DNA of 64,000 nucleotides from an uncultured Clostridia bacterium (GCA_947585965.1 CANPXK010000002.1:439-64438), one strand, 5' to 3'. Counted from the first letter of the stretch, positions 10,661-31,233 are shown. Numbers and translations are program-made. The notes: generated by a model from the sequence alone, not told the origin.

Positions 10661-10690
10661 TGTGCTGCAAGGTATGGAGATGAAACGATA

Positions 10691-11302: not shown

Positions 11303-11347
11303 AAAGGCTGTCATATTAAGGATTTTTGACTTAATATGACAGCCTTT
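11303..11347. terminator. Bidirectional hairpin terminator between the acidic ORF and cysK
   Basis: A perfect 18-bp stem AAAGGCTGTCATATTAAG pairs with CTTAATATGACAGCCTTT around a 10-nt loop. A/T runs flank both sides. Confidence 0.8.
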
Positions 11348-11361
11348 ATTATATTTGAATG

Positions 11362-12291: not shown

Positions 12292-12400
12292 AATAATACA
12301 ACTCCTTTTGATTTTGCAGCATTTATATAATTACTGCCTGTTTTTACGGTATTGCATGGAATCAAAACATAGTAAACATATAGGCTTTTGGTTTATTAAT

Positions 12401-12429
12401 ACTATAACACCATATATTTCATTTGTCAA
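12401..12429 (-). promoter_or_regulatory. Sigma-A-type promoter for cysK
   Basis: On the minus strand, TTGACA (12429-12424) is followed by a 17-nt spacer and TATAGT (12406-12401). Confidence 0.6.
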
Positions 12430-12452
12430 GAGGAATTTAAGTAAAATAAATA

Positions 12453-13001
12453 TTAAATAAAGGTGATTGCAGATGAGCTTTCAAAAAGCGGAGCGGACGG
12501 CGGATACAGAGTAAAACCTATAAAAAGTATCGTAATTCCTGCTATTAGCAGAAGTGCGGAAAGAGTACGTGATATTCCGGTTTTTGTTTTTCTGCCGATA
12601 GACGCGGTGCTTATACGGAATGAAAGATATACTGCTGTAAAAAACAGAAGTATATCCGCAAGGAAAAAATTATTTCCGAGTATGGCGGTATATGTGTAAA
12701 AGCCTGCCGGTATGAAAATAAGACCGGCAAGAAGTCCTTTTATTCTTGAAAACAGAAAGCCGTTTATATGCCTGCCGTAAATAAAAAATTCCGTAATTGT
12801 ATATAATATATATGGGAAAAACAGAAGCTTAAGATGCTCCCATGTACTTTCATTAATCGGAGTGACCATCCCCACTATGGGATTGCAGCCGCTGAGTTTA
12901 TATAGGAAATGATTTATGCAGCCTATTATTCCGACAACAAAAAATCCGACTTTACCGGCAAAAATATAGTTATTCGATTTATTATTCAAATAATACACCA
13001 C
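12453..13001 (-). CDS. Hypothetical integral membrane protein
   Basis: The 182-aa ORF has ~5-6 hydrophobic helices and a WEHLKLLFFP motif. That motif reminds me of a DUF-type membrane family, but I cannot verify it. The start is GTG and is uncertain. Confidence 0.6.
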   Translation of the reverse strand: MVYYLNNKSNNYIFAGKVGFFVVGIIGCINHFLYKLSGCNPIVGMVTPINESTWEHLKLLFFPYILYTITEFFIYGRHINGFLFSRIKGLLAGLIFIPAGFYTYTAILGNNFFLADILLFFTAVYLSFRISTASIGRKTKTGISRTLSALLLIAGITILFIGFTLYPPSAPLFESSSAITFI

Positions 13002-16100: not shown

Positions 16101-16129
16101 TTGACAGACAGCCATTGTTGTCATATAAT
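16101..16129 (+). promoter_or_regulatory. Consensus sigma-A promoter for the CotH-like gene
   Basis: TTGACA (16101-16106), a 17-nt spacer, then TATAAT (16124-16129). Confidence 0.7.
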
Positions 16130-16181
16130 CGAGGTGTGGGTATATCGGTATATATTAAAAACGAAAGAAGGCGTAACAGTT

Positions 16182-18113
16182 ATGAAAAAGAAATTATCAA
16201 TTATACTTTCGGTTATACTGGCAGTTGTTTCCGTTTCAGCCTGCGGCGGTTCGGGTTCTTCAACTGCAAATGGAACACAGGATGATCAGAGCAGTATAAG
16301 TTCGTCCGCACAAGAGCAGGCGGACGGGTCGGTGGTTGACGATAATACAGAATCAGAACAAAGCAAAGTTTCCGAGTCAACGGATGGAAAGTCCGAAGCC
16401 GAAAGCTCCGCCTCATCCAAGAGTGGAGACTCAGGCAGCAGCGGTACGGCGGACAATTCAAAGGATAATTCCGCATCGTCCACGGTTCAGAACTCTGCAC
16501 AGGGCAGCGTAACAGGACAGACAAGTAAGACTCCGCAGAACAGTGCAACAGAACAGGGCGGAGGAGTTACAGACAATACCGGCGGCACAGGAAACGGCGG
16601 CAATTCCGTCAGCACTGGCAATACCGGCAGTACAGGAAATGACGGCAGTAATCAAAGTACCGGTGGAAGCACTGGCAATACCGGCAGCACCGGCAATTCC
16701 GGCAGTACAGGAAACGGCGGCAGTAATCAAAGTACCGGCAACACCGGCGGTTCGGGTACAAATGTAGGTGACCAGTCTGTATATGAACAGCTTTTCAGCC
16801 TTGACAGTAAGGTGACAATTGAAATAACGATGTCCAAAAGTGAAATGGACAAGATGGATAAAGACTATTACAAATATCAGAGTAAGGGTACAAAATCCCC
16901 CATTTACAGAAAGGCAACAGTTGTTATCACAGTCGGTGGAAAAAGCTATACGATAGATGAGGTAGGAATACGCGCAAAGGGCAATCTTTCTGTTCTGCCT
17001 GTTTATGATGATTCTGGAGAGCTGAATCTTTCGCATTATAAATTAAGCTTTAACGAAACCTTTGATGATAAGGATTATTACGGAAGTGATGCCAAGGTAT
17101 GGAAAAGCACTGCCGAGAGAAAGGAAAGAAAAAACAGACGTTTTGCTACATTGAAAAAGCTCGACGTCAAATGGAACAGAAATTATGACGATACCTATAT
17201 AAGGGAAATTTATGCTGCGGAAATGTTCAGACAGAGCGGGGTTATGGCACAGAAAATCGGACTTTCACAGCTTAAGTTCAATAACAATAACTATGGAGTT
17301 ATGACTATATATGAGCCGATAGATGAGATCTTCCTTGAACGTAATTTGCCGGAGTCCGCTCTCGGAGGAGATCTTTATAAGGTGGGTTGGACATATTCAC
17401 CGGCAAATTATGTGGAAAATCAGGTATCAATAGGTATAACGGACGAGGATAAGGGAGCAAAATATAATTTTGATCTTAAGACAAATGAAAAAACATCCAA
17501 GAACGAAAAGCTTAAGAATTTCCTCAAGGTTATAAATTCAAATCCGACACAATCACAGCTTGAGGCTGTGCTCGATACGGATTATTTTGCAAAATTCCTT
17601 GCGGCATATTATTTTGCGGGAGATCCCGATGACATAAGGAATAATTACAATAACCACTATATCTACTTCAGAAAGGACAACGGAAAGGCGGTATTTATAC
17701 CATATGATAATGACCGCACACTCGGGGTTACAATGGGATATAATCCTGACGGAACGGGAATGACAGGTCAGTCACCCTATTCCAATCGTGCGGCGGGTGC
17801 AAATCAGATTCAGGCAAATCCGCTGATAAAGCTTGCCATTGAGGACGGAAACTTCCTCAATACCAAATACACATCGGCACTTAAAAAGGTTGCGGGACTG
17901 TCATTGTGGAATAATTCACAATTTGAGGCACAGTATAATAAGGCAAAGAAAAATTATCAGAGCTTTGTCAAGCCAAGCATAAGCTTTGCAAATGCAGATA
18001 ATAATTTTAAATTCAGTCTTGACGGAGAATATCCTTCCGGGGAGGAGTCCAATATGTCTTTTTCTGATTTTGTTACAAGAATAATGAAGACCTATAAGAC
18101 CTATGTAAAATAA
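16182..18113 (+). CDS. CotH-like (atypical kinase fold) lipoprotein with a long S/T/G/N-rich linker
   Basis: The lipobox is LAVVSVSAC at the ATG-16182 start. About 190 aa of low-complexity linker follow. The C-terminal ~430 aa resemble the CotH family by recall (YKLSFNETFDD, KLDVKWNRNYDDTYIREIYAAEMF, YFAGDPDDIRNNYNNHYIY). Confidence 0.6.
   Translation: MKKKLSIILSVILAVVSVSACGGSGSSTANGTQDDQSSISSSAQEQADGSVVDDNTESEQSKVSESTDGKSEAESSASSKSGDSGSSGTADNSKDNSASSTVQNSAQGSVTGQTSKTPQNSATEQGGGVTDNTGGTGNGGNSVSTGNTGSTGNDGSNQSTGGSTGNTGSTGNSGSTGNGGSNQSTGNTGGSGTNVGDQSVYEQLFSLDSKVTIEITMSKSEMDKMDKDYYKYQSKGTKSPIYRKATVVITVGGKSYTIDEVGIRAKGNLSVLPVYDDSGELNLSHYKLSFNETFDDKDYYGSDAKVWKSTAERKERKNRRFATLKKLDVKWNRNYDDTYIREIYAAEMFRQSGVMAQKIGLSQLKFNNNNYGVMTIYEPIDEIFLERNLPESALGGDLYKVGWTYSPANYVENQVSIGITDEDKGAKYNFDLKTNEKTSKNEKLKNFLKVINSNPTQSQLEAVLDTDYFAKFLAAYYFAGDPDDIRNNYNNHYIYFRKDNGKAVFIPYDNDRTLGVTMGYNPDGTGMTGQSPYSNRAAGANQIQANPLIKLAIEDGNFLNTKYTSALKKVAGLSLWNNSQFEAQYNKAKKNYQSFVKPSISFANADNNFKFSLDGEYPSGEESNMSFSDFVTRIMKTYKTYVK
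16560..16765 (+). repeat. In-frame imperfect tandem repeats encoding (S/G)TGN(T/S/G)G units
   Basis: GGCAATACCGGCAG recurs at 16617 and 16674. GGCAGTAATCAAAGTACCGG recurs at 16644 and 16719. Confidence 0.8.
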
Positions 18114-18128
18114 GTATTATAAGCATTT

Positions 18129-18176
18129 CAGACAGCCTCCTGCACTTTTGCCCGGAAGTGCAGGGGGTCTGTTTTT
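18129..18176 (+). terminator. Rho-independent terminator after the CotH-like gene
   Basis: A long GC-rich stem (CAGAC..CCTCCTGCACTT / AAGTGCAGGGGG..GTCTG) is followed by T5. Confidence 0.75.
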
Positions 18177-18269
18177 CATATACGGTTGATATTAATTTGC
18201 CAAAGCATACAGATATTTTCGGTATTTTTGCTTTTGTGTTGTTATGATACCGAAAATAACCGGGATTGA

Positions 18270-18298
18270 TTGACAAAGTGCTTTTTTGAAATTATAAT
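18270..18298 (+). promoter_or_regulatory. Consensus sigma-A promoter for the glycopolymer operon
   Basis: TTGACA (18270-18275), a 17-nt spacer, then TATAAT (18293-18298). Confidence 0.7.
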
Positions 18299-18332
18299 AT
18301 TACTTAACTATGGTGTATAGGACTGTGTATTT

Positions 18333-19415
18333 ATGACGGTTTCGTTATGTATTATAGCATATAACGAGGAAAAAGCCCTGCCGGGTCTGTTGAATGATGT
18401 GATTTCACAGACCTATCCTAAGAGTGAAACGGAAATAGTGCTTGTTGACAGCGGCTCGGGGGATAATACAAAAAATATATTTTCAAAATTTGCAGGAGAT
18501 AATAAAAACGCTTATATGAATATATCCGTGCTTAATAATCCGAAAAGGTCACAGGCGGCAGGCTGGAATACAGCTATAAAGAATGCCTTGGGTGATATTA
18601 TTATAAGAGTTGACGCTCATGCATCAGTACCACGGGATTTTATAGAGAAGAATGTAGGGGTTATTGCCGGGGGAGAATATGTTTGCGGCGGTGCAAGACC
18701 TTGCAATATTTTGGAACCTACACCATATAAGGAAACACTCCTTCTTGCCGAAAATTCAATGTTCGGGAGCTCCTTTGCAGGCTATCGCAGAAAGGGAGAG
18801 GGAAAACGATATGTTTCCTCACTTTTCCACGGAGCGTACAGGCGGGAGGTTTTTGCAAATGTCGGCGGCTTTAACGAGAACCTCGGCCGCACGGAGGATA
18901 ATGAGTTTCATTGGAGGATAAGGCAGAACGGATATAAGATATGTCAGAGTGATGAAATAATATCATATCAGAATATAAGACCAACACTTTCGGGAATGCT
19001 CAAGCAAAAATACGGAAACGGCAAATGGATAGGACTCACGCTGGGGGTATGCCCGAAGTGTCTTTCACTGTTCCATTTTGTGCCGTTTTGCTTTGTGGGA
19101 GCAATAATATTATGTCTTATATTGCTTGCGGCGGGAATTTTTACGGGTAATACACTTTTATATATTCCGGCTGTTGTACTCGGAGGATTATATTTTACAG
19201 TTGATGTTTTTATGACAATGGCGGCAATTATTGCATCCGAAAGAAAAAATGTATATATGCCGCTGCTTATATTTATATTTCCAATGCTTCATATTATATA
19301 TGGAATAGGGACTATTGTGGGAATAATTGAATTGCCGTTTTGGAAAAGAAGTCTTGACGGAGCGGCTGAAAAGGAAATTGAAGAGGTAAAAAAATGCGTG
19401 GCGGCTCGAAGCTGA
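18333..19415 (+). CDS. Family 2 glycosyltransferase with C-terminal TM helices
   Basis: The N-terminus has a GT-A pattern (VSLCIIAYNEEKALPGLL, VLVDSGSGDNT, RVDAH). The C-terminal ~110 aa are hydrophobic. Confidence 0.8.
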   Translation: MTVSLCIIAYNEEKALPGLLNDVISQTYPKSETEIVLVDSGSGDNTKNIFSKFAGDNKNAYMNISVLNNPKRSQAAGWNTAIKNALGDIIIRVDAHASVPRDFIEKNVGVIAGGEYVCGGARPCNILEPTPYKETLLLAENSMFGSSFAGYRRKGEGKRYVSSLFHGAYRREVFANVGGFNENLGRTEDNEFHWRIRQNGYKICQSDEIISYQNIRPTLSGMLKQKYGNGKWIGLTLGVCPKCLSLFHFVPFCFVGAIILCLILLAAGIFTGNTLLYIPAVVLGGLYFTVDVFMTMAAIIASERKNVYMPLLIFIFPMLHIIYGIGTIVGIIELPFWKRSLDGAAEKEIEEVKKCVAARS

Positions 19416-19431
19416 AAATGGAGGTAATGTT

Positions 19432-20343
19432 ATGACAGATACCGGGCGTGTGTCTGAAAGGGGAGGCAGAGTTTCCCGTTTTTTTAAAAATTTGTGGTCG
19501 GCGGTTGTGCAGATACCGAATGAGCATAAGGGATTTGGCAAGCAGACCTTTATGCTTGCCAAGGAAGACCTTATAAAGACATATAAAGGAGCAATACTCG
19601 GTCCTTTATGGGCTGTTATGAAACCGCTGTTTCAGCTTTTCGTATATTGGTTTGCCTTTACGATAGGCTTGCGTTCGGCAAACAGAATGGAAATGGGAGC
19701 ACCGTATTTTGTTTTTCTTCTTGTGGGCTTTATACCATGGTTCTTTATGAGCGATACTGTCAGCAGAGGTTCTAAATCTATTGTGACAAACAGGCAGTTC
19801 GTTACCAAAGTTTCCTTTCCTGTTTCGGTAATAATGACTTATACGACCATTTCAAAATTTTATGTGCATATTTTCCTGTTTTCGCTGAGCTATATCTACC
19901 TTCTTATTACGGGATATCAGCCGAGTATTTATGACTTGCAGCTTTTGTTCCTTGCACCGCTTATGTTTATGTTTTTCCTCGCACTTCTGTGGTCACTTGC
20001 ACCTATGAGTGCGTTCAGCAAGGATTTTTCAAGCTTTATAACTACAATCATGTCCGGTCTGTTCTGGCTTTCCGGTGTGTGCTATGATTCGTATATCCTT
20101 GACAATGAAGCAATCCGTATAGCTCTTCTGTTTAATCCGATGACCTATTTTGTCAATGCTTACAGAAAGGCAATTCTTTGCAATAAATGGATATGGGAAG
20201 CTCCGAGTTATGATGCAAGCATGAAATACGGACTCCACCCTCTGTGGGAAAATGCGATTTTCCTTGCGGAATTTGCTCTTGTTATAATTCTGGGCATTTA
20301 CAACTACAACCGTCTGAGAAAGGAATTGCCTGACGTTTTGTAA
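19432..20343 (+). CDS. ABC-2 type polysaccharide/teichoic-acid export permease (TagG/Wzm-like)
   Basis: LIKTYKGAILGPLWAVMKPL plus six TM helices is typical of TagG/KpsM/Wzm permeases. A GGAGG RBS precedes the start. No ATPase gene is adjacent. Confidence 0.8.
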   Translation: MTDTGRVSERGGRVSRFFKNLWSAVVQIPNEHKGFGKQTFMLAKEDLIKTYKGAILGPLWAVMKPLFQLFVYWFAFTIGLRSANRMEMGAPYFVFLLVGFIPWFFMSDTVSRGSKSIVTNRQFVTKVSFPVSVIMTYTTISKFYVHIFLFSLSYIYLLITGYQPSIYDLQLLFLAPLMFMFFLALLWSLAPMSAFSKDFSSFITTIMSGLFWLSGVCYDSYILDNEAIRIALLFNPMTYFVNAYRKAILCNKWIWEAPSYDASMKYGLHPLWENAIFLAEFALVIILGIYNYNRLRKELPDVL

Positions 20344-20374
20344 TATTCTCAGATAATCGGCAGGGGTGTGGGAG

Positions 20375-21574
20375 ATGGAAGAAAGCTTTTTTCAGAAACT
20401 TCAACGTGTAAAATTAAGAGATGTATGTCATATATTCAAGTTCATAATTGCTTTGCCGATAGCACTCGTGTATAGGCTTTTCCGCAGAGATTTATGGCTT
20501 ATATGCGATAATGAAAATGAGGCGAGAGACAACGGTTTTTATCTTTTCAGATATATAAGACAAAATTATCCGGAGCAGGATACGGTCTATGCAATAAAAA
20601 AACATTCCCCTGACTATATCAGAGTGAAAGACTTGGGAAAAGTCGTAAATTACGGTAGTTTGATGCATTGGATATTATATCTTACGGCAAATAAGAATAT
20701 CAGTTCGCAAAAAGGGGGAAAACCCAATGCGGCAGTGTGTTATTTTCTTGAGGTAAATAAAATTCTGAAGAATACACGAATTTTTTTGCAGCATGGTATT
20801 ATAAAGGATGATATGCCTTGGCTTTATTATGAAAATACGATGATGAGAATGTTTGTATGCAGTACGGACAGGGAATGGAAATACGTAAGCGAAAAGTACG
20901 GCTATCCGCAGGGGTACGTTAAAAAACTCGGTATTTGCAGACTGGACGGACTGCACGATGCGGAGGTAAAGGAAAATCAGATATTACTTATGCCGACATG
21001 GCGAAGCTGGATAGCGACACCGACTTCGGCATCATATGACATTGAGGATGTGTCGGATTTTACGCATACGGAATATTTCAGGGGTTGGAGCGGATTCCTC
21101 GGCAGTGAACGGCTTCATAAAATCCTTGAAGATAACAGGCTTAAGCTTGTGTTTTACCCGCATAGGGATATGCAGCTGTTCCTTAAATATTTTAATATAA
21201 CAAATAAAAATATAATCGTCGCAAAATGGCCGGAATATGATGTTCAGGAGCTTCTTAAGGAGTCGGCATATCTCATTACCGATTATTCGAGCATAGCAAT
21301 GGATTTTGCGTATATGAAAAAAAGGCTTATGTATTATCAGTTTGATTATAATGATTTCCGCAGGGGACAATACCCGGAGGGATATTTCAGTTATGAAAAA
21401 GATGGTTTCGGGAAGGTTTGCTATAAATTGGAGGATGCACTTGACGAGCTGGAGGAGGCGATCCGAGAGAGGTTTAAAAATAAGGAAGAATATCTGAAAA
21501 AGCACGATGAATTTTTCGATTTGTATGATAAAAATAATTGTGAGCGTAATTACAGAGAGATTAAGGGGTTATAA
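20375..21574 (+). CDS. CDP-glycerol glycerophosphotransferase family protein (TagB/TagF-like)
   Basis: Family signatures LLMPTWR, YPHRD and LITDYSSIAMDFAYMKKRLMYYQFD are present. The start could be GTG 20366 or ATG 20375. Confidence 0.85.
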   Translation: MEESFFQKLQRVKLRDVCHIFKFIIALPIALVYRLFRRDLWLICDNENEARDNGFYLFRYIRQNYPEQDTVYAIKKHSPDYIRVKDLGKVVNYGSLMHWILYLTANKNISSQKGGKPNAAVCYFLEVNKILKNTRIFLQHGIIKDDMPWLYYENTMMRMFVCSTDREWKYVSEKYGYPQGYVKKLGICRLDGLHDAEVKENQILLMPTWRSWIATPTSASYDIEDVSDFTHTEYFRGWSGFLGSERLHKILEDNRLKLVFYPHRDMQLFLKYFNITNKNIIVAKWPEYDVQELLKESAYLITDYSSIAMDFAYMKKRLMYYQFDYNDFRRGQYPEGYFSYEKDGFGKVCYKLEDALDELEEAIRERFKNKEEYLKKHDEFFDLYDKNNCERNYREIKGL

Positions 21575-21577
21575 TAT

Positions 21578-22588
21578 ATGTCAGAAGAAAAAATTGATTT
21601 TGTTCTGCCGTGGGTGGACGGGAACGACCCCGAGTGGCAGGCTGAAAAGGCAAAATATGATACTTCTGCAGTTATGAATAGCAGTGATACATCGGTAAGA
21701 TACCGTGATTGGGATAATTTACAGTATTGGTTCAGGGCGGTGGAAAAATTTGCACCATGGGTAAATAAAATACATTTTATTACATGGGGACATCTTCCGC
21801 CGTGGCTCAACACCGAACATCCGAAGCTCAATATTGTCAATCATCGGGATTATATTCCCGAGAAATATTTGCCTACTTTCAGTTCACATACAATAGAGTT
21901 GAATATGCACCGGATAAACGGATTGGCTGACAGGTTTGTGTACTTCAATGACGATATGTTCATTATTAAACCTGTGACACCGGAAGATTTTTTTAAAGAC
22001 GGACTTCCGTGTGATACTTTCGGACTTAATTGTATTTATTTCGGCGAAGATAGCGCAGGTCATTTTAACGGTTCTGATATGGAAGTGATAAATACTGAAT
22101 TTGCTTCCCGAAAAAGGCAGATAATGAAAAGAGATTTAGGTAAATGGTTCAGCTTGAAAAACGGATTTCGTATAAATCTGAAAACGGCAATGCTAAGCTT
22201 CTGGGAGTGGTTCCCGGGATTTCATTATAACCATTTACCGTCCGGATTTTTGAAAAGTACATTAAATGATGTATGGGATAAATATTATGCTGTTCTTGAT
22301 AAAACCAGCCTTGACAAATTCAGAAAAGAATATAATGTAAATCAGTGGTTATTCAAATACTGGCAGTTTTGTGAGGGAAAATATTCCGTGCGATCACCCA
22401 AAACAGGAGAATGTTTTCATATCAAGGAAAGTAATTTTGCAAAAGCCTGCGATGCCATTTTAAAACAAGAATATTTGATGATATGTATAAATGACACATC
22501 ACGCACGGAAAATTTCAATGAAAAAAAGCTTATGATACAGGACTGCTTTAATAAAATTCTTCCTGAAAAATCCGAGTTTGAACGTTGA
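21578..22588 (+). CDS. Stealth family sugar-1-phosphate (hexose-phosphoryl) transferase
   Basis: Stealth conserved regions are present: IDFVLPWVDGNDPEW (CR1) and FAPWVNKIHFITWGHLPPWL...LPTFSSHTIELNMHRINGLADRFVYFNDDMFI (CR2). Confidence 0.85.
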   Translation: MSEEKIDFVLPWVDGNDPEWQAEKAKYDTSAVMNSSDTSVRYRDWDNLQYWFRAVEKFAPWVNKIHFITWGHLPPWLNTEHPKLNIVNHRDYIPEKYLPTFSSHTIELNMHRINGLADRFVYFNDDMFIIKPVTPEDFFKDGLPCDTFGLNCIYFGEDSAGHFNGSDMEVINTEFASRKRQIMKRDLGKWFSLKNGFRINLKTAMLSFWEWFPGFHYNHLPSGFLKSTLNDVWDKYYAVLDKTSLDKFRKEYNVNQWLFKYWQFCEGKYSVRSPKTGECFHIKESNFAKACDAILKQEYLMICINDTSRTENFNEKKLMIQDCFNKILPEKSEFER

Positions 22589-22603
22589 AGGTGGTGATGG
22601 GGG

Positions 22604-23127
22604 AATATAACAAGGTGGCTGCTTGCAATAGTATTGGGAGTTATATGTGCACAATATGATGTTTTTGCAAGATCAAAGGCATTTATGATAACTAAAAACA
22701 AGATTATAAGTAAGCTTATCAAGTTTGTATTTTTAACATCTGTTTTGGTGCTTCTGTTTTACGCAAAAGTAAAGCTCACTTGAGGAATCGGTTCGGACTA
22801 TACTTGTGAACTGAATGGGAATGTTATTCCGCCTTTGTCTGCTGCTATTGTTATGTATTTATTTCCGATATTCCTCTGATAAGTAATATACTGATGTTCA
22901 CAGGAAAACATTCAATGGATATCTCCTTGTTCCATACATTTATAAGAAATTATTTGTTCTGTTAATTTACTTATCCGTTCCGCCATTTTGCATTAATTAC
23001 CTTTGTTTTACCGGCTGTATCTTTGGCAGTTTCAGTGGTTTTGGAATTGATAAAAAAATACCTCGGATATAATAAACTTGTAGCTTATCTCGGTAAGAAG
23101 ATAAACAATAAAACGTTGACGGAGTGA
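22604..23127 (+). pseudogene. Remnant of an acyltransferase-3 (OatA/WecH-like) O-acyltransferase gene. Only the C-terminal half remains, broken into at least 4 frame fragments.
   Basis: Hand translation gives four consecutive hydrophobic fragments in different frames: NITRWLLAIVLGVICAQYDVF...LVLLFYAKVKLT*, GSDYTCELNGNVIPPLSAAIVMYLFPIFL*, ILMFTGKHSMDISLFHTFIRNYLFC*, FTYPFRHFALITFVLPAVSLAVSVVLELIKKYLGY...*. 'GKHSMDISLFH' resembles the conserved AT3 C-terminal motif. There is no start codon or RBS. Confidence 0.5.
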
Positions 23128-23186
23128 CAAGGGAAAGCTGTAATAAATCTGACAGGTGTATTTTAATAAAGAAAGGATCTAATGAA

Positions 23187-25862
23187 ATGAATGTGGAAAA
23201 CAAACCTTTTTTCAGTACTGTAATTTATATGTCAAACGATTGTGCGGAAGATACGCTTGACAGTATATTTAAACAAAGTGATATTCTTCAATCCGATATA
23301 CAGATTATTCTTGTACGCAGTGAAAGAGAGGATTATGAGGATTATATTTCCGGACTGAAAAAAGAAAATAAGAATGTAGATGTATGCACCGGGATATTTA
23401 AAACACAGGCTTCTGCTTATGCCGAAGCCATAAAACTTGTTAAGGGAAAATACGTTTGTTTTCCGGAATGCGGAGGATCCTATACAGAATATACATTTGC
23501 CTATATGAAGGCAGTATTTGAAGTGAGAAATATATGTCTTGCAACGGTTATGCCTGATCCTTCAACAGATAAAAATTTTTCGGAAATAATCAGGGCGATG
23601 AAAAATAAGCCGAATAATTGCGATTTGAATGAAAAATATTCTTTTCCCCTGGTTTTTCTTTCGGGTTGTTTTATAAGTACGAAGCTTGCATTTGATATAA
23701 ATACAAAGCTTGATATCAAATCCGTTTTTGAATGTGATATGCTGCTCAGGCTTGCCGGTCAGACACAGACGATCAGTGTATTCAAAGACAAAGCCGCAGG
23801 CTTCAGACCTTGGATAAGAAATTCACCTGTATTCGGTTTCTTTGAGGATTTCAGGGATTCAAAGGAAAAGCTTGAATTGTTTTTTGATGAATTCATAACC
23901 GCTAATGCAAAACGATTTTTGGATGAATTCGGCTGCATACCGAGGTTTGTCCAGTATAATTTAATGATTTTTCTTAAATGGAGTTTTACCGCCCCGTCTG
24001 CGGAAAAGATTTTCGCACCTCTGATGTCAATTGAGGAATATGAGAAGTATCTTAAGGAGCTTTTGGCAAATATTGATGATAATATTATAAATAACTGCGG
24101 ATTGCAGCTTGCATATAAACTGCTTATCTTCAGAATAAAGCATGACGGGAAAATAAGATTTGTACGGAGATCCTTTACTAAAAGACTTTATTTTAAAAAT
24201 GTAAAGGTTTGCGAATTATCAACAAATACAATCAATATAGACTTTGTTGAGCTGGAGAAAGACAAAGTGACGTTCCGCGGAAGAATAAAATTTGCCGGAT
24301 GTAAGAAAGACGAATTTGCATTGTATGCAATTGTTGATCAACAGGAAAAGATTAAAGCAGTGGATACGGGACATAGTTATGATACTTTTGTGTGGGGAAG
24401 AAACGAATATCCCGGCATGAGTTTTGAAATTGAGATAGATCTTGAGGGAAGAAATGAATGTAAGATTGAATTTTTCTGCATTCATAAGGGAGATATAATC
24501 AAAAAAAGCAATATAAGTTTCGGTAAATTTTCTCCTGTTTGTTCGGTTGTTCCCGACTGCTATTATTATAATGATAAGAGAATGATGAAATATTCACCCG
24601 CCGACAGTTCCGTTATTATCAGTAAGGCTTCGTTTTTTGACAGGGTAAAATGTGAGCTTAAATATCTGAAAACATTGTCACGTATAGATAATGATTATGC
24701 AAGGCACGCATATTATGCAAGGATATTGTATCATATAATAAAACCGTTTTATAAAAAGGATATATGGCTTATTTCCGACAGAACAAATAAAGCCGATGAT
24801 AACGGTGAAGCATTTTTTAAATATATGCAGAAGGTCAATAATAAAAGGCTGAAATGTTATTTTGTTATTGACAAAAACTCCGAGGACGGCAAAAGAATGG
24901 CGAAAATCGGAAAGGTTATATCTACAAATTCCAAAAAACACAAGATATACCATCTGCTGAGCTCATATATAATATCATCACAGGCGAATAATCCGGTGGT
25001 TAATCCTTTTCTCAGGGGTAATATTTACTACAGGGATATATTGTGCGAAAGACGTTTTGCATTCCTGCAGCACGGCGTTATCAAGGATGATCTGTCCTCG
25101 TGGCTTAATCTTTACAACAGGAATATTTTCGGATTTGTTGTTACAACAAATCCGGAATATCAGTCTATTCTTGACTATGAGTATTTCTATAAGCCTGAAA
25201 ATGTATGGCTTACAGGTCTGCCGAGACATGATTTTCTTTATCATGATGAAAAGAAATATATCACAGTTATGCCCACATGGAGAAAATCTCTTATGAAATA
25301 TCCCGATCCTGTTACGGGTATATGGATAATAAGGGATGACTATAAGGAAAGCAAGTATTATAAATTTTATAATTCGCTTTTCAATAATAAACGACTTCGT
25401 GAGGCAGCAAAGAAATACGGATATAAAATCTGCTGCAAGCCTCATCCGATAATTGAGCCGTATCTTGATTTGTTTGATAAGAATGACGATGTTATTTTCT
25501 TTGACGCGGAAAAATCCTATCGTGAAATTTTTGCCGAAAGCGACCTTATGCTGACGGACTATTCCTCCGTTGCATTTGATTTCGCATACCTGAGAAAGCC
25601 TATAATATATACTCAGTTTGACAAGGAGGCATTTTTCAGCGGAGAACATTCATATACTGCGGGATATTATGATTATGAGCGTGACGGTTTCGGTGAAGTT
25701 GTGTATGATATAGAGTCGACTGTTGATCTTATAATAGATTATATGAAAAATGACTGTAAAATCAAGGATAAGTATCTCAAAAGAATAAACGATACATTTG
25801 CTTTCAGTGATAAAAATTGCAGTGAGAGAGTATACAAAAAGCTTATTCAGGGTAATAAATAG
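23187..25862 (+). CDS. Bifunctional-looking protein: N-terminal GT-A-like domain fused to a C-terminal CDP-glycerol glycerophosphotransferase (TagF-like) domain
   Basis: C-terminal motifs VMPTWRKS, CKPHP and LMLTDYSSVAFDFAYLRKPIIYTQFD are present. The N-terminus begins FFSTVIYMSNDCAEDTLDSIFKQ. The ATG at 23187 follows AAAGGA. Confidence 0.8.
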   Translation: MNVENKPFFSTVIYMSNDCAEDTLDSIFKQSDILQSDIQIILVRSEREDYEDYISGLKKENKNVDVCTGIFKTQASAYAEAIKLVKGKYVCFPECGGSYTEYTFAYMKAVFEVRNICLATVMPDPSTDKNFSEIIRAMKNKPNNCDLNEKYSFPLVFLSGCFISTKLAFDINTKLDIKSVFECDMLLRLAGQTQTISVFKDKAAGFRPWIRNSPVFGFFEDFRDSKEKLELFFDEFITANAKRFLDEFGCIPRFVQYNLMIFLKWSFTAPSAEKIFAPLMSIEEYEKYLKELLANIDDNIINNCGLQLAYKLLIFRIKHDGKIRFVRRSFTKRLYFKNVKVCELSTNTINIDFVELEKDKVTFRGRIKFAGCKKDEFALYAIVDQQEKIKAVDTGHSYDTFVWGRNEYPGMSFEIEIDLEGRNECKIEFFCIHKGDIIKKSNISFGKFSPVCSVVPDCYYYNDKRMMKYSPADSSVIISKASFFDRVKCELKYLKTLSRIDNDYARHAYYARILYHIIKPFYKKDIWLISDRTNKADDNGEAFFKYMQKVNNKRLKCYFVIDKNSEDGKRMAKIGKVISTNSKKHKIYHLLSSYIISSQANNPVVNPFLRGNIYYRDILCERRFAFLQHGVIKDDLSSWLNLYNRNIFGFVVTTNPEYQSILDYEYFYKPENVWLTGLPRHDFLYHDEKKYITVMPTWRKSLMKYPDPVTGIWIIRDDYKESKYYKFYNSLFNNKRLREAAKKYGYKICCKPHPIIEPYLDLFDKNDDVIFFDAEKSYREIFAESDLMLTDYSSVAFDFAYLRKPIIYTQFDKEAFFSGEHSYTAGYYDYERDGFGEVVYDIESTVDLIIDYMKNDCKIKDKYLKRINDTFAFSDKNCSERVYKKLIQGNK

Positions 25863-25865: not shown

Positions 25866-25923
25866 AAACAGCCGGAATATGATGTTCTGCACAATATGCA
25901 GTGTCATATTTCAGGCTGTTTTT
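25866..25923 (+). terminator. Putative terminator separating the polymerase genes from the MBOAT operon
   Basis: AAACAGCC pairs with GGCTGTTT (8 bp) around a structured loop (CTGCA/TGCAG). Ts follow. Confidence 0.5.
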
Positions 25924-26024: not shown

Positions 26025-26053
26025 TTGATATTATTCTTTTAGTGGAGTAAAAT
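26025..26053 (+). promoter_or_regulatory. Putative promoter of the MBOAT-DHHW-FkbH-ACP operon
   Basis: TTGATA (26025-26030), a 17-nt spacer, then TAAAAT (26048-26053). Confidence 0.45.
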
Positions 26054-26096
26054 AAATCTATATAAAAGGGATCTTGTAGAATTATGGAGAAATAAA

Positions 26097-27518
26097 ATGG
26101 TATTTTCGTCTTTGTTTTTTTTGTATGTTTTTTTGCCGATTTGTCTGTTTTGCTACTACATTTGCAAAACAATTGAACAAAAAAATATTGTACTTATAGC
26201 GGCATCACTTATTTTTTACGCATGGGGAGAACCTGTGTGGGTAAGTCTTCTGGTTATCAGCGCATTTGTAAACTGGTTTGCGTCAAGGCTTATCGGTTAT
26301 TTAAAAAAAGAACCGAAAAAAAAGCTTGTCGCCGCCGCTGCGATAGTATTTGACCTCGCACTGCTTATTGTGTTCAAATACAGCGGCTTTATTGTTGAAA
26401 ATATAAATGCCGTGACCGGACTGGGAATTCCTGTTCCGGAGATAGTTATGCCTATAGGAATAAGCTTCTTTACGTTTCAGGCAATATCTTATATTATGGA
26501 TTGTTTGTGGGGAACTGTAAAACCTCAAAAAAAATATATTAACTTTCTTCTGTATTTGTCACTTTTCCCACAGCTTGTTGCCGGACCTATTGTAAGATAC
26601 AGTGTTATTGATGAGGAGATAACAAACAGAAAAATCAGAGCTGTTGATATCAGTGAGGGTGCTAAAAGAGCTATTCTCGGTATTGCTAAAAAAGTTATAA
26701 TTGCAAATAACCTCTATGCTGTTGTTGAACAGTTCTTCGGAACGGATATAACAAACCTTTCATTTTGCGGAACATGGTATACCGTAATTCTTTATTCGCT
26801 GTATGTGTATTTTGATTTCAGCGGATATTCGGATATAGCTATAGGTCTGGGAAGAATGTTTGGTTTCCATTTCAATGAAAACTTTAATTATCCGTTCATA
26901 TGTAAAACAATAAGTGAATTCTGGCAGAGATGGCATATTTCTTTAAGCTCTTTCTTCAGGGATTATCTGTTCTATGTTCCCATTTTCGGCAAACCGAGAA
27001 AATATTTTAATCTGTTTCTTGTGTGGTTCTGCACGGGTATGTGGCATGGCGCTTCATGGAATTTTATTTTCTGGGGTCTGTATTTCGGGTTATTTATCTT
27101 TATTGAGACAAAAATAGGAAAGAAAAGGCTTAAAAAATGGAATAAGGTCTGGACACATATATACAGTAAAATTATTATTGTCATAGGCTTTGGTATATTC
27201 TATTTTACCGATCTCGGTCAGCTCGGAAGATTCTTTATGAATATCTCCGGTTTGAGTATGATAACTAATGGCAACGAATTTTCTGATATCTTGACAAGAG
27301 ATTCTCTGATTAATAATCTTTTCCTGATTATTTTTGCAATAATTGTATCAATGCCGATTCTTGAAAAGGTCAAATATTTCTTCTATAAATGGGGAAACAA
27401 TACAGTATATGCGGCAGGACAGTTAGGCGGAACGCTTATTTGCTGTGCATTGCTGATAATATCGAGTATATTGCTTGTGGATAATACAAATAATCCGTTT
27501 TTGTATTTCCGCTTCTGA
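26097..27518 (+). CDS. MBOAT family membrane-bound O-acyltransferase (AlgI/DltB/PatA-like)
   Basis: The protein is multi-TM. The conserved His regions FWQRWHISLSSFFRDYLFY and GMWHGASWNFIFWG are present. A GGAGAA RBS precedes the start. Confidence 0.9.
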   Translation: MVFSSLFFLYVFLPICLFCYYICKTIEQKNIVLIAASLIFYAWGEPVWVSLLVISAFVNWFASRLIGYLKKEPKKKLVAAAAIVFDLALLIVFKYSGFIVENINAVTGLGIPVPEIVMPIGISFFTFQAISYIMDCLWGTVKPQKKYINFLLYLSLFPQLVAGPIVRYSVIDEEITNRKIRAVDISEGAKRAILGIAKKVIIANNLYAVVEQFFGTDITNLSFCGTWYTVILYSLYVYFDFSGYSDIAIGLGRMFGFHFNENFNYPFICKTISEFWQRWHISLSSFFRDYLFYVPIFGKPRKYFNLFLVWFCTGMWHGASWNFIFWGLYFGLFIFIETKIGKKRLKKWNKVWTHIYSKIIIVIGFGIFYFTDLGQLGRFFMNISGLSMITNGNEFSDILTRDSLINNLFLIIFAIIVSMPILEKVKYFFYKWGNNTVYAAGQLGGTLICCALLIISSILLVDNTNNPFLYFRF

Positions 27519-27533
27519 TAAGAGGAGTTGCAA

Positions 27534-29027
27534 ATGGAGAATAAAGAAGTTCAGTCCGTTAAAAAGCGAAAAAGAAAAAAAGGGCTTAATAATATTCCGC
27601 GAAAAGGCGTTGAGCGTGGCTTTGCGATAATATCGCTTATGATAATTGTGCCGATTTTTTTTGTTGCGGCTTTGCTTATGGTGATATTGCCCCGTCCTGA
27701 GGTATCGGAAATTGAAAAACGAAAGCTTGCCGGGATGCCTGAATTTACATTTGATTCATATTTTTCGGGAGAGTATACCGCCGGTCTTACGGAACACTAT
27801 GATGATACTGTCCCCTATCGAGATGATTTAAAAAATGTGGGATATAGTTTCAAATCACTGTTCGGAATACATACCGAAGATGAGGTTAAGGTTGTGGGTA
27901 AGCCATCGGTCATAAAGCCGGTCGGGGATAATAAGGATGGGCAGTCCGAAGCATCAGAGCCGGATGCCGCAGAAAATTCAAAAACCGAATCTCAACAGTC
28001 AGGCGAGAACCCGGGAACGGAAAGTCAACCCGAACATAGCAGGGAGGAATCATCTCAGGAGACATCTCAGGAATCCTCTGAGGATGAAGAGGTCACCGTG
28101 GAAAACGGAATAATTGTTGTCAAGAACAACGGTCATTATCGTGCCCTTGAGCTTTTCGGCGGGGGAAGCGGAAGTACGTATGCTGAGGCACTTAACAATT
28201 TCCACAAGGATCTCGGTGACAGCGTTAAAATTTATTCGATGGTAGCACCTCTTGCAAGCGAATATTATACACCGGCCAGCTATTCTGATTTTAATGCCAG
28301 CCAGAAAGACAGCATAAAGAGTATTGAGAGCAAACTTGATAAGGATATAGTATCAATAGATATTACGGATGTTCTGGGAGAGCATAAGGATGAGGAGATA
28401 TATTTCCGAACCGATCATCACTGGACGCCACTCGGAGCGTATTATGCGGCAGAGACTTTTGCGAAGGCTGCGGGGCTTAGTTTCAAGGATCTGAGTACCT
28501 ATAAAAAGAATGATATGGAAGGCTTTGTAGGTACGATGTATGGTTTTACCGAGGATGCAAACCTTAATAATGATCCGGAGGTATTTTCTTATTATACACC
28601 CGGAAATATCGACAAATGCATGACATATTATTACACGACCGATTTTGAATATACCGGAAAGGGAAGATTCTTTAACGGTGTCGGTGATGTAAGAAGTGCA
28701 TATCTTACCTTTATGGGCGGAGATGAACAGGTTGTAAAGGTAAAGACAGACGTTAAGAACGGCAAAAAGCTTCTTATTGTCAAGGACAGCTACGGTAATG
28801 CTATACCCGGATATCTGTTTGGCTCCTATGAGGAAATATATGTTGTTGATATGAGGTATTTCGGTCTTAATCTTGTCGATTTTGTAAAGCAGAATAACGT
28901 TACGGATATGCTTTTCACTATGGTATCGTATTCGGCAGTCGGAGATAATGCAGATAATCTTGAAAATCTCAGAACTCAGGCTAAGGGCAGAAAAATCGTA
29001 GACGAAGGTCTTAAGGACGAGGACTGA
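27534..29027 (+). CDS. DHHW family protein (extracytoplasmic AlgJ/AlgX/DltD-like acyl-transfer partner), membrane anchored
   Basis: An N-terminal signal-anchor helix and an acidic Ser/Glu-rich linker lead to FRTDHHWTPLGAYYA (the DHHW motif). A GAGGAG RBS precedes the ATG at 27534. Confidence 0.8.
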   Translation: MENKEVQSVKKRKRKKGLNNIPRKGVERGFAIISLMIIVPIFFVAALLMVILPRPEVSEIEKRKLAGMPEFTFDSYFSGEYTAGLTEHYDDTVPYRDDLKNVGYSFKSLFGIHTEDEVKVVGKPSVIKPVGDNKDGQSEASEPDAAENSKTESQQSGENPGTESQPEHSREESSQETSQESSEDEEVTVENGIIVVKNNGHYRALELFGGGSGSTYAEALNNFHKDLGDSVKIYSMVAPLASEYYTPASYSDFNASQKDSIKSIESKLDKDIVSIDITDVLGEHKDEEIYFRTDHHWTPLGAYYAAETFAKAAGLSFKDLSTYKKNDMEGFVGTMYGFTEDANLNNDPEVFSYYTPGNIDKCMTYYYTTDFEYTGKGRFFNGVGDVRSAYLTFMGGDEQVVKVKTDVKNGKKLLIVKDSYGNAIPGYLFGSYEEIYVVDMRYFGLNLVDFVKQNNVTDMLFTMVSYSAVGDNADNLENLRTQAKGRKIVDEGLKDED

Positions 29028-29066
29028 TGAGTTTATTATAAAATAATTCTTGTACGGGGAGGATAT

Positions 29067-30863
29067 ATGAAAGAACTCGAATATCCGTTTGAAAGTGATT
29101 ATATAATTAAAAAGAAAAAATCGTTAAGGCGTGCTCTCCTTGCCGATGGCAGGGAGAGACTCAGAAAAAAAATAGCCGTATTCGGCGGCTCGACAACACA
29201 TGATATTATAGTTTATCTTGAACTGTTTCTGCTTGATCAGGGAATCGAGCCGGAATTTTATGAGTCCGAATATGCACAATATTGGCAGGACATCATGTTT
29301 CCGAGTGAGGAGCTTCTGGATTTTTCACCGGACCTTGTATATATTCATACGACAAGCCGCAATATAGTGAATTATCCCACAACTGCGGAAAGCAGGGAGC
29401 AGGTTGAAGAAAAGCTTCAGAGGGAATATGCAAAATTCGAGCAGATGTGGAAGAAGATAACGGAAACATATCATTGCCCTATTATACAAAATAATTTTGA
29501 AATGCCGTTCTACAGGCTTATGGGAAATAAGGACTGCTCCGACTACAGAGGCCGCTCTAATTTTGTGAGCAGGCTGAATGGGTTATTTTATGATTATGCG
29601 GAAAAAAATGAAGGCTTTTATATAAATGACATAAATTTCATTTCCGCTTCATACGGTCTTAGGCAGTGGAGTGATCCGTCATACTGGAATATGTATAAAT
29701 ATGCCATGTGTACGGAGGCTATACCTGAATTTTCATTTAACCTTTCTAATATTATAAAATCCGTATTCGGAAAAAATAAAAAAGCACTTGCCCTCGATCT
29801 TGACAATACCCTTTGGGGAGGCGTTGTAGGTGATGACGGTGTTGACGGAATACAGATTGGTCAGGAAACGGGTGTTTCACAATCTTATTATGAATTTCAG
29901 AGCTATGTAAGGTCGCTTAAGGATATTGGTGTTATACTCACTGTATGCTCCAAAAACGATCATGAAAATGCAATAGCGGGTCTTAATCACCCCGAGGGGG
30001 CACTAAAACCGGAGGATTTCATTATAATAAAGGCTAACTGGGAAAATAAGGACAGAAATATAATCGAAACCGCAAATGAACTTAATATTTTCCCCGACTC
30101 TATAGTATTTGCCGATGACAATCCGGCTGAAAGAGAGATTGTACGTGCACAGGTTCAGGGTGTTGCAGTGCCGCGGATGGACGGTGTTGAAAATTATATT
30201 ATTAATCTTGACAGGGGAGGATATTTTGAAGTTACCAATTTCAGTGCGGATGATCTGAAAAGAAATGAGATGTATAAGGCTAATGCCGAAAGATCCGCTC
30301 AGCAGGCATCCTTTGCCGATTACGGCGAATATCTGTTAAGCCTTGATATGAAGGCTGTTATTGATGATTTCATACCTGTTTATCTGCAAAGAATAACGCA
30401 GCTTACGAATAAGAGCAACCAATTCAATGTTACAACAAAGCGTTATACCGCAACCGAAATGGACGACGTATATAAGAGCAATGAATATATACGTCTGTAT
30501 GGTAAGCTTACGGATAAGTTTGGTGATAACGGAGTTGTATCTGTGGTCATAGGCAAGATAGACGGAGATATACTCAATATAGATTTATGGATAATGAGCT
30601 GTAGAGTGCTGAAAAGAGATATGGAGCTTGCAATGCTTGACAGGCTTGTGGAGCGTGCGGCTGAAAGGGGTATAAAAACCATAAAGGGGTATTATTATCC
30701 CACAGCCAAAAATAAAATGGTTCGGGAGCTTTTCAATGTCTTTGGTTTTGAAAAGATTGAGGAGGATTCCGAGGGCAATACCGTATGGAAACTCGATATT
30801 GCCGGGTATGAAAAAAAGAACAATGTAATTACAGTTGAAGATAATTCTTCACTTAATAATTAA
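29067..30863 (+). CDS. FkbH-like HAD-IIIC phosphatase / acyl-loading protein with a C-terminal GNAT-like domain
   Basis: LALDLDNTLWGGVVGDDG is the HAD-IIIC DxDxT motif. CSKNDHENA and FADDNPAEREIV are present, as is the C-terminal IMSCRVLKRDMELAML typical of the FkbH family. A GGGGAGG RBS precedes the start. Confidence 0.8.
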   Translation: MKELEYPFESDYIIKKKKSLRRALLADGRERLRKKIAVFGGSTTHDIIVYLELFLLDQGIEPEFYESEYAQYWQDIMFPSEELLDFSPDLVYIHTTSRNIVNYPTTAESREQVEEKLQREYAKFEQMWKKITETYHCPIIQNNFEMPFYRLMGNKDCSDYRGRSNFVSRLNGLFYDYAEKNEGFYINDINFISASYGLRQWSDPSYWNMYKYAMCTEAIPEFSFNLSNIIKSVFGKNKKALALDLDNTLWGGVVGDDGVDGIQIGQETGVSQSYYEFQSYVRSLKDIGVILTVCSKNDHENAIAGLNHPEGALKPEDFIIIKANWENKDRNIIETANELNIFPDSIVFADDNPAEREIVRAQVQGVAVPRMDGVENYIINLDRGGYFEVTNFSADDLKRNEMYKANAERSAQQASFADYGEYLLSLDMKAVIDDFIPVYLQRITQLTNKSNQFNVTTKRYTATEMDDVYKSNEYIRLYGKLTDKFGDNGVVSVVIGKIDGDILNIDLWIMSCRVLKRDMELAMLDRLVERAAERGIKTIKGYYYPTAKNKMVRELFNVFGFEKIEEDSEGNTVWKLDIAGYEKKNNVITVEDNSSLNN

Positions 30864-30881
30864 ATTAAAGGGGATAGAGCT

Positions 30882-31124
30882 ATGGATTCTAAGACAATTT
30901 ATGCAAGATTGAATAAGGTGTTCAGAGATGTGTTTGATGATGACGATATTACGGTAAATGCAAAAACTACCGCAAACGATATCGAGGACTGGGACAGCCT
31001 TGAACATATAACGCTTATGGCGGCTGTTCAGAAGGAATTTAAGGTAAAGTTTTCAATGGGTGAGATTGCATCCATGAAGAATGTCGGAGAAATGGCGGAT
31101 ATCATTGCAAAACGTGCTAAATAA
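30882..31124 (+). CDS. Acyl carrier protein (stand-alone, polysaccharide-locus type)
   Basis: The protein is 80 aa. DWDSLEHITLMAAVQKEF contains the DSL phosphopantetheine-attachment serine. An AAAGGGGA RBS precedes the start. Confidence 0.85.
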   Translation: MDSKTIYARLNKVFRDVFDDDDITVNAKTTANDIEDWDSLEHITLMAAVQKEFKVKFSMGEIASMKNVGEMADIIAKRAK

Positions 31125-31142
31125 TGAGTGTTGTTATTTTAG

Positions 31143-31178
31143 AGGGGCTTTCCGATAATACGGACGGCTCCTTTTTTT
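31143..31178 (+). terminator. Rho-independent terminator after the ACP gene
   Basis: An interrupted stem AGGGGC..CCG pairs with CGG..GCTCCT and is followed by T7. Confidence 0.65.
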
Positions 31179-31188
31179 GATATGGGTA

Positions 31189-31233
31189 TAAAAATCGACA
31201 GCCGCACAGGTCTTAGTCCCTATGCGGCTGTCG
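31189..31233 (-). terminator. Rho-independent terminator after glgP
   Basis: An 11-bp stem CGACAGCCGCA pairs with TGCGGCTGTCG. The U-tract is on the minus strand (A-run 31190-31194 on +). Confidence 0.75.

Follow-up and report, generated by a model that had tools for sequence, protein, structure and literature searches.

The stretch of DNA analysed here (the window) is a 64,000-nucleotide (nt) segment of one strand from an uncultured Clostridia bacterium (GCA_947585965.1 CANPXK010000002.1:439-64438), with positions counted from its first letter. Four genes at 26097-31124, all on the + strand and separated by gaps of 15, 39 and 18 nt, encode an MBOAT protein, a DHHW-type SGNH protein, an FkbH-like protein and a small acyl carrier protein (ACP). 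Judged from its sequence and from related loci, this unit is probably an operon complete in itself, by which a glycopolymer of the cell envelope would be acylated outside the cytoplasm in a carrier-protein-dependent manner. Its membrane half would be an MBOAT-SGNH pair of the PatA1/PatB1 type, and its cytoplasmic half an FkbH-type loader with an ACP of its own. It is quite likely that the four proteins work together with the ACP as acyl donor; that the acyl group is glyceryl seems an even call or slightly better. A sequence-only reading had previously mapped the four genes one-to-one onto the Dlt machinery. The ORF (open reading frame) coordinates confirm the four genes and their gaps, all the motifs it had quoted (RWHISLSSFF, MWHGASW, FRTDHHW, DWDSLEH, DLDNTLWGG and MSCRVL) are present, and profile hidden Markov model searches gave significant matches for all four family assignments.

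Family assignments of the four proteins

The MBOAT protein scores 74.6 bits against PF03062 (cutoff 27; 1.1e-20) and its His280 (RWHISL) and His317 (MWHG) align with the corresponding motifs of DltB, placing it in the MBOAT superfamily. Its sole NCBIfam match is the DltB model TIGR04091, at 158.7 bits against an equivalog cutoff of 375; the extent of this match, residues 7-368, defines a DltB-like core. The sole solved structures matching the protein are likewise those of DltB (PDB 8jem/6bug; 1e-24), with both the RWHxSL and the WHG histidine motifs aligned. Beyond the core lie two further hydrophobic segments (398-430 and 436-466), followed by the C-terminal sequence FLYFRF (468-473), which includes Tyr470. 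The FxYxxF pattern is an acyl-shuttle motif whose tyrosine becomes acylated and passes the acyl group on to the SGNH partner. In Dlt it forms the C-terminal end of DltX, whereas in PatA, AlgI and their relatives it is part of the MBOAT itself (Anderson et al. 2025, PMC12148441). FxYxxF closes all 27 orthologous MBOATs of the window's type (type i, see below) and 33 of 38 from a second clade (type ii), the exceptions being mostly truncated at contig ends. Because the extra C-terminal segments end in a fused FxYxxF, the window protein is, by its sequence, of the PatA/AlgI and not the DltB architectural type, and no separate DltX microprotein gene would be needed. The earlier equation with DltB thus stands for the family and the core, but not for the DltB class itself.

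The second protein scores 176 bits against PF14286 (cutoff 25; 1.7e-51) and also matches ALGX (2e-10). A hydrophobic stretch within residues ~25-58 would provide a membrane anchor and is followed by a Ser/Glu-rich linker at ~125-190. The DHHW motif occupies 294-297, Ser419 lies in KDSYGN, and Asp439 and Arg441 lie in VDMRYF. Structural matches comprise an uncharacterised protein of Eubacterium siraeum (PDB 4nzk; 9.8e-89) and Bacillus cereus PatB1 (5v8d; 5.7e-8); in the alignment with the latter the blocks DHHW, KDS(F/Y)xNA and DxR(Y/H) all correspond, as befits a DHHW-family member. The DHHW, KDSxxN (nucleophile Ser) and DxR (oxyanion) blocks hold the catalytic residues described for PatB1 (PMC9487903). 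Family membership inferred in this way is with DHHW/PatB1 and not with DltD: the protein had been correctly recognised as a membrane-anchored DHHW protein, but its comparison with DltD has to be replaced by one with PatB1.

The FkbH-like protein exceeds the cutoffs of the FkbH-domain model TIGR01686 (255.3 bits; cutoff 146.65), the HAD-IIIC model TIGR01681 (60 bits; cutoff 35.75) and the FkbH_N family PF21211 (43.8 bits; cutoff 27; 3.6e-11). It is made up of an N-terminal extension (NEX, or FkbH_N; residues ~35-231), a HAD-IIIC phosphatase domain with D244, D246, S295-K296-N297, K328 and D350-D351, and a C-terminal GNAT-fold acyltransferase subdomain bearing S511-C512-R513. This layout agrees with what PMC12304814 (citing Sun et al. 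2008) gives for long-form FkbH-like proteins, namely an N-terminal extension followed by phosphatase and acyltransferase subdomains. Residues 18-393 match the N-terminal part of Bacteroides fragilis BF1531 (PDB 3slr; 1.5e-51). An AlphaFold2 model reached a mean confidence (pLDDT) of 68, with good N- and C-terminal domains, and a Foldseek search with its C-terminal domain returned the GNAT fold, at target-normalised TM-scores of 0.68-0.74 to RimI and Ard1. In an alignment of 22 family members with 31-61% identity to the window protein, D244 and D246 (DxDxT), S295-K296-N297, K328, D350 and S511-C512-R513 are invariant. The catalytic residues are also common to a Sinorhizobium meliloti homologue (see below) and to a 359-residue short-form homologue (27% identity) encoded between nonribosomal peptide synthetase (NRPS) and polyketide synthase (PKS) genes on a B. 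cereus plasmid. The latter we take, from its genomic context, to be a zwittermicin ZmaN-type enzyme, and the cysteine of the SCR motif is presumably the acyl-enzyme residue, as in OzmB. Loss of the HAD nucleophile Asp or of the catalytic Cys would have spoken against an FkbH-type loader; both residues are kept and invariant in these alignments. A catalytic esterase role for the N-terminal, SGNH-like domain was considered but is not supported, its GGS serine falling outside the conserved columns of the diverse alignment.

The 80-residue carrier protein scores 23.6 bits against the phosphopantetheine-binding family PF00550 (cutoff 20.8; 6.4e-5), with the phosphopantetheine-site Ser39 in DWDSLEH, so that the DSL serine first noticed in the sequence is borne out. 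Its DWDS motif is kept in the orthologues examined. The best PDB match is 2lml, a nuclear magnetic resonance structure deposited as a 'putative acyl carrier protein' (7.8e-21); the protein is a dedicated carrier, as proposed, but not a close relative of DltC.

These assignments define what the unit shares with Dlt (DltA, DltC, DltB, DltX and DltD; D-alanylation of teichoic acids) and where it departs from it. Both combine a carrier protein, an MBOAT and a membrane-anchored SGNH protein in a stand-alone operon that would handle a small acyl group, and of all solved structures and NCBIfam models, DltB is the one closest to the core of the window MBOAT. The FkbH-like protein and its ACP stand where DltA and DltC would be, as the sequence-only reading had it; the loader, however, is of the FkbH HAD/GNAT type rather than an adenylating enzyme, and none of the four proteins matches the AMP-binding family. 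FxYxxF is fused to the MBOAT, no DltX microprotein being encoded separately, and the MBOAT, SGNH protein and ACP differ from DltB, DltD and DltC as described above. Whereas Dlt transfers a cationic aminoacyl group, a neutral hydroxy-acyl group is predicted here. Since DltA is absent, there is no separate DltX gene and the DltB cutoff is not reached, the unit is not a Dlt system: the parallel holds for the protein families and the carrier logic, not gene for gene.

Joint inheritance of the four genes

Whether the unit recurs elsewhere was examined from two of its genes. A scan from the FkbH-like gene, with one genome per species, yielded 80 loci (53-88% identity), whose genes were identified by phmmer with the proteins of the window as queries. 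In 73 of the 80 species an ACP homologue is encoded no more than 3.5 kb downstream of the FkbH-like gene, and in 65 the two are direct neighbours. Linkage to an MBOAT gene was counted in the 46 loci that extend at least 4.5 kb to either side: 33 have one within 5 kb on the same strand, and three of the loci counted as lacking it have one ~6 kb upstream. Thirteen of the 33 show the order of the window, MBOAT-DHHW-FkbH-ACP (type i). The other 20 carry a second MBOAT clade (type ii) of 500-530 residues, with scores of no more than 100-200 bits against the window MBOAT. The type-ii order is mostly FkbH-ACP-MBOAT, followed by a gene for a membrane-anchored protein of ~330 residues without a Pfam family. 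Alignment of 13 such partners revealed invariant D, G and S residues in a DVxFxGxS block and a later D...H block in which the His is invariant and the Asp nearly so. A profile of these proteins matched SGNH structures in the PDB only below threshold (PAF-AH, 0.06; PatB, 0.17); judged by the GxS and D..H blocks, they look SGNH-like, in the manner of DltD.

A second survey, from the DHHW gene, found the arrangement MBOAT-DHHW-FkbH_N-ACP, with an ACP of 80-81 residues, at all five homologues (50-52% identity), in otherwise unrelated surroundings (HrcA/GrpE, a histidine operon, TagF/Stealth and others). Co-conservation of the four genes, proposed beforehand as a check, therefore holds from either end, and the comparative evidence that they form a functional unit is strong. 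In the related loci examined, no other conserved acyltransferase able to use the cargo was found beside the ACP. The chief reason for taking the cargo of the ACP to be the probable substrate of the MBOAT is that the same loader and ACP are found with two distinct MBOAT/SGNH-like pairs, no other conserved acyltransferase being present.

The module occurs chiefly in gut and rumen Clostridia. Single loci come from metagenome-assembled genomes labelled Odoribacter, Synergistales and Endomicrobiellum (thus Bacteroidota, Synergistota and Elusimicrobiota), for which binning errors are possible. Cultured strains that carry it are Eisenbergiella tayi DSM 26961, Ruminococcus flavefaciens 007c and S. meliloti. 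On pSymB of S. meliloti (CP140955.1 1048481-1053516), an MBOAT ending in FLYQGF, a 409-residue protein, an ACP and an FkbH-like protein are encoded a few kb from capsule genes (a Capsule_synth-family gene, an ABC transporter and RkpR). The 409-residue partner is membrane-anchored, contains GGS and DPGH blocks and matches no Pfam family. One record labels it 'TonB-dependent receptor', which these same features make probably wrong. The annotation of the FkbH-like protein reads only 'HAD family hydrolase'. The presence of the module in cultured strains, including the genetically tractable S. meliloti, makes the prediction directly testable.

Several of the surveyed loci show variations. Tandem DHHW paralogues lie between the MBOAT and FkbH-like genes in locus L065 (3794-7982; four ORFs with DHHW similarity, one of only 184 residues), and two DHHW paralogues are present in each of L026, L041 and L049, no MBOAT being detectable nearby in L026 and L041. 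By analogy with AlgJ and AlgX, such paralogues suggest that one acyl donor may feed several acceptor specificities. Locus L005 (74% identity) has a 287-residue gene (7113-7976) between the DHHW and FkbH-like genes, whose product combines an N-terminal CxxC zinc-ribbon-like part, a Q/Y/N-rich region and C-terminal membrane segments; just after its ACP gene comes an S-adenosylmethionine-dependent methyltransferase gene (10474-11262), whose product might tailor the acyl group. In L017, which represents one species, a gene ~400 nt 3' of the ACP gene (10432-12954) encodes an 840-residue protein in which a xylose-isomerase-like TIM barrel (AP_endonuc_2) is joined to an AMP-binding adenylating enzyme; this protein could load the same carrier in place of the FkbH-like enzyme or alongside it. 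Two Lachnospiraceae loci, L019 and L035, have the FkbH-like gene without a nearby MBOAT, ahead of phosphofructokinase and DNA polymerase III tau/gamma (DnaX) genes; an ACP gene adjoins it in L019, and none was detected in L035. On a 56-kb Clostridium perfringens plasmid (L088), ACP and HAD-IIIC genes accompany those for a nucleotidyltransferase, a VOC protein and two ABC exporter components, again with no MBOAT nearby.

Predicted route of the acyl group and competing readings

A four-step route can be proposed. The ACP would first be converted to its holo form, with phosphopantetheine on Ser39. The substrate of the FkbH-like enzyme would be an acyl phosphate, with 1,3-bisphosphoglycerate the likeliest; the HAD domain (Asp244/Asp246) would strip the remaining phosphate and Cys512 in the GNAT-fold subdomain would hold the acyl group, giving glyceryl-S-ACP. 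For this step the residues are designated by conservation and the chemistry is modelled on characterised enzymes of the FkbH/OzmB/Tmn16 type. Next, acyl-ACP would dock on the cytoplasmic face of the MBOAT, where His317 would catalyse transfer across the membrane to Tyr470 of FLYFRF; here the shuttle motif is present in the protein, and the ACP is placed as donor on the basis of gene linkage. Finally, by analogy with PatA/PatB, PatB1 and DltX/DltD, the DHHW protein would accept the acyl group on Ser419 and esterify a hydroxyl of the surface polymer. Glyceryl-ACP is the best guess for the loaded species because the HAD and SCR-cysteine residues match those of the zwittermicin-cluster FkbH, and the strict conservation of the phosphatase residues points to a substrate with an acyl phosphate and a second phosphate, as 1,3-bisphosphoglycerate has. 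Taken as a whole, a widespread pathway in which an FkbH-type enzyme puts a 1,3-bisphosphoglycerate-derived acyl group on an ACP, and surface glycopolymers are O-glyceroylated outside the cell, is put forward on this sequence evidence at a little under an even chance.

A number of observations weigh against this route. The HAD core of the AlphaFold2 model is poor, with pLDDT below 50 for residues 245-319. To our knowledge, and with no search aimed specifically at the question, glycerate esters have not been reported on wall polymers of Clostridia. About a quarter of the well-flanked FkbH-ACP pairs have no MBOAT within 5 kb, so that the loader/ACP pair evidently serves other consumers too. Lastly, among MBOATs with a fused FxYxxF, the only one whose mechanism has been studied, Campylobacter jejuni PatA, takes acetyl-CoA directly (PMC12148441), which keeps an acyl-CoA among the candidate donors for the window MBOAT.

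The last two of these points also favour a division of the module into two separate functions, the MBOAT/DHHW pair acting as a PatA1/PatB1-type O-acetyltransferase on acetyl-CoA and the FkbH-like protein and ACP making glyceryl-ACP for another use in the cytoplasm, for instance to N- or O-glyceroylate a nucleotide sugar or a lipid. PatA, with the same fused motif, auto-acetylates from acetyl-CoA (PMC12148441), and the characterised DHHW member, B. cereus PatB1, is an O-acetyltransferase (PMC9487903). There is also a precedent for an FkbH-domain gene within a glycan-modification locus, cj1302 in the flagellin glycosylation island of C. jejuni (PMC7099621). There, unlike in the module, the modification presumably takes place in the cytoplasm on a nucleotide sugar, and no MBOAT/SGNH pair is known to take part. 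Pseudaminic acid modified with di-O-methylglyceroyl groups is reported from the strain carrying cj1302. Against separate functions, the linkage is seen from both directions, across varied contexts, with two MBOAT/SGNH-like clades and in an alphaproteobacterium; moreover, the unit contains no other conserved transferase to consume the acyl-ACP, terminators bound it and its intergenic gaps are short. The bidirectional gene linkage makes this explanation less likely, and we regard it as unlikely.

Joint action of the four proteins could also involve a different acyl group: lactyl, glycolyl, acetyl (from acetyl phosphate), 3-phosphoglyceryl, or a glycerate modified after loading. The loader shares only 27% identity with the PKS/NRPS-type homologue examined, it belongs to a very large long-form family (5013 clusters at 50% identity, E <= 1e-30), nearly all of it uncharacterised, and a methyltransferase gene directly follows the ACP gene in L005. 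Some FkbH domains, those of the bryostatin type, have been proposed to yield lactate after further processing. However, all HAD phosphatase residues and the SCR cysteine are strictly conserved, in keeping with 1,3-bisphosphoglycerate; the FkbH-like enzymes described in the literature drawn on here all make glyceryl-ACP; and the window module is without a tailoring enzyme. An acyl group other than glyceryl therefore appears rather unlikely.

Glyceryl-S-ACP synthases of the FkbH/OzmB/Tmn16/ZmaN type share with the window loader identical HAD motifs and SCR cysteine, the long-form architecture and a stand-alone ACP encoded next door, and the characterised FkbH/ACP pairs stem from PKS/NRPS clusters. 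A secondary-metabolite pathway, of the tetronate or methoxymalonyl polyketide type, was considered for this reason. The consumers in such pathways are PKSs, FabH-like tetronate synthases and dehydrogenases; here an MBOAT and an extracytoplasmic SGNH protein take their place, and the neighbours are wall-polymer or housekeeping genes. Among the ORFs scanned against Pfam across 1-37139 there is no ketosynthase, FabH-like, acyltransferase (AT), condensation or dehydrogenase/O-methyltransferase gene, nor is there one in the related loci. With no PKS, NRPS or FabH-like genes present, a polyketide cluster was rejected; envelope modification is preferred, and a role in secondary metabolism seems very improbable indeed.

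Envelope acylation by the four proteins would combine features of systems already described. PatA1/PatB1, which O-acetylates the secondary cell wall polysaccharide of Bacillus cereus/anthracis, and CcsH/CcsI of Clostridia likewise consist of an MBOAT and a DHHW-family SGNH protein, but no loader or carrier protein is mentioned for them in the literature consulted (PMC9487903, PMC7710045) and acetyl-CoA is assumed as the donor, whereas FkbH-like and ACP genes are co-conserved with the window pair. PatA/PatB of Gram-negative peptidoglycan O-acetylation and AlgI/AlgJ/AlgX have the same extra C-terminal MBOAT helices ending in FxYxxF, from whose Tyr the acyl group passes to the SGNH Ser; PatA, in contrast, has been shown to use acetyl-CoA, and MBOAT/SGNH pathways other than Dlt, these included, are stated to lack a carrier protein (PMC12148441, JBC 2025). 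A literature search, with most subscription journals outside its reach, found no description of the module; within that mostly non-subscription literature, the expectation that no publication defines it was upheld. Re-use of Dlt-like carrier logic for another envelope modification is known from AlmEFG of Vibrio cholerae, which adds glycine to lipid A. In that case, unlike in the window module, loading is by an adenylating enzyme (AlmE), AlmG does not belong to the MBOATs and transfer takes place on lipid A.

In the current picture, MBOAT-SGNH systems draw on a D-alanyl-carrier protein (Dlt) or on acetyl-CoA (all others) (PMC12148441). If the proposed route is correct, an FkbH-loaded ACP feeding a PatA-type MBOAT would be a third mode of donation, and the module the second carrier-protein-dependent MBOAT-SGNH acylation system after Dlt. 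PatA-type MBOATs with a fused tyrosine shuttle could then take acyl-ACP in place of acyl-CoA, which would surprise specialists in envelope acylation. Many gut commensals would bear a new ester substituent, probably glycerate, on their wall or capsule polymers, coupling envelope decoration directly to glycolytic flux; surface chemistry of this kind influences recognition by phage, lysozyme and the host.

Operon boundaries and neighbouring genes

The coordinates of the module and its surroundings are collected in Table 1. A GGAG-type Shine-Dalgarno sequence precedes every one of the four starts. The DHHW ORF has an alternative in-frame TTG at 27528; GAGGAG stands 7 nt before the ATG at 27534, which makes the latter the likely start. 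Both the upstream hairpin and the downstream terminator claimed in the sequence-only reading fold significantly, and each is followed by a U run. The upstream hairpin ends the 912-residue TagF-like gene and sets the module apart from it. The promoter claimed ahead of the unit is less secure: the candidate, which ends 44 nt upstream of the MBOAT start, has a good match to the consensus, but 22 promoter-like sites were found in the region where 19.4 are expected from shuffled sequence. Such sites not being enriched, this promoter is plausible rather than demonstrated. On the far side, the module terminator and that of the convergent glycogen phosphorylase gene lie 15-20 nt apart and form a back-to-back pair. 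Scans of the whole window for Rfam families (at the gathering threshold) and for tRNAs returned none.

Table 1. Positions of the module genes, flanking signals and neighbouring features in the window.
Feature	Position	Strand	Description
Upstream glycopolymer locus (context)	16101-25862	+	Pfam: CotH-like, GT2, ABC-2 permease, TagF-like, Stealth, AT3 pseudogene remnant, 912-residue GT-A/TagF-like fusion
CotH-kinase-family gene	16101-18113	+	670 residues; first gene of the glycopolymer cluster
AT3 remnant	22604-23103	+	truncated, frameshifted Acyl_transf_3 (AT3)
TagF-like gene	23124-25862	+	912 residues; TagF-type CDP-glycerol glycerophosphotransferase domain only at 537-907
Upstream intrinsic-terminator-like hairpin	25866-25921	+	-27.7 kcal/mol, z -5.5, then U run; 0/200 shuffles fold as well
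Sigma-70-like promoter candidate	26025-26053	+	TTGATA, 17-nt spacer, TAAAAT; 10/12 positions match
MBOAT gene	26097-27518	+	473 residues
DHHW-type SGNH gene	27534-29027	+	497 residues counted from ATG
FkbH-like gene	29067-30863	+	598 residues
Carrier protein gene	30882-31124	+	80 residues
Operon terminator	31141-31181 (hairpin 31141-31174)	+	-18.3 kcal/mol, z -4.8, then U7
Terminator hairpin of convergent glycogen phosphorylase gene	31196-31233	-	15 bp, G+C-rich, -32.1 kcal/mol, z -9.0

The sequence-only reading had also named the polymer made by the adjacent TagF/Stealth genes as the acceptor. In this genome the link is reasonable, and the product of these genes, a teichoic-acid-like polymer, may be the acceptor, a proposal we make tentatively; but such adjacency is found in a minority of relatives. 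TagF/Stealth neighbours recur in the closest relatives (L002-4, L007, L009 and L013) and in the more distant L094. The other type-i loci examined are without them and lie mostly among genes for SPFH/NfeD proteins, cardiolipin synthase, a zinc peptidase, HrcA/GrpE or a histidine operon. With synteny limited in this way, TagF/Stealth was rejected as the general acceptor locus. The varied housekeeping surroundings suggest instead that the module acts like a dlt operon, as a portable unit that stands alone and modifies some surface polymer made constitutively.

Three genes of the upstream glycopolymer locus deserve mention. The AT3 remnant occupies a 536-nt gap between the Stealth gene and the 912-residue TagF-like gene; it is 57% identical in protein sequence to residues 207-373 of an intact AT3 at the same position in L002, and its frame shifts near 22831. 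The strain seems to have lost AT3-type acylation at the same polymer locus. The cluster opens with the CotH-like gene, a family whose roles in polysaccharide loci are poorly understood. In the 912-residue protein, the first ~530 residues have no Pfam match at E <= 0.001, and their start (FFSTVIYMSND...) resembles a GT-A glycosyltransferase.

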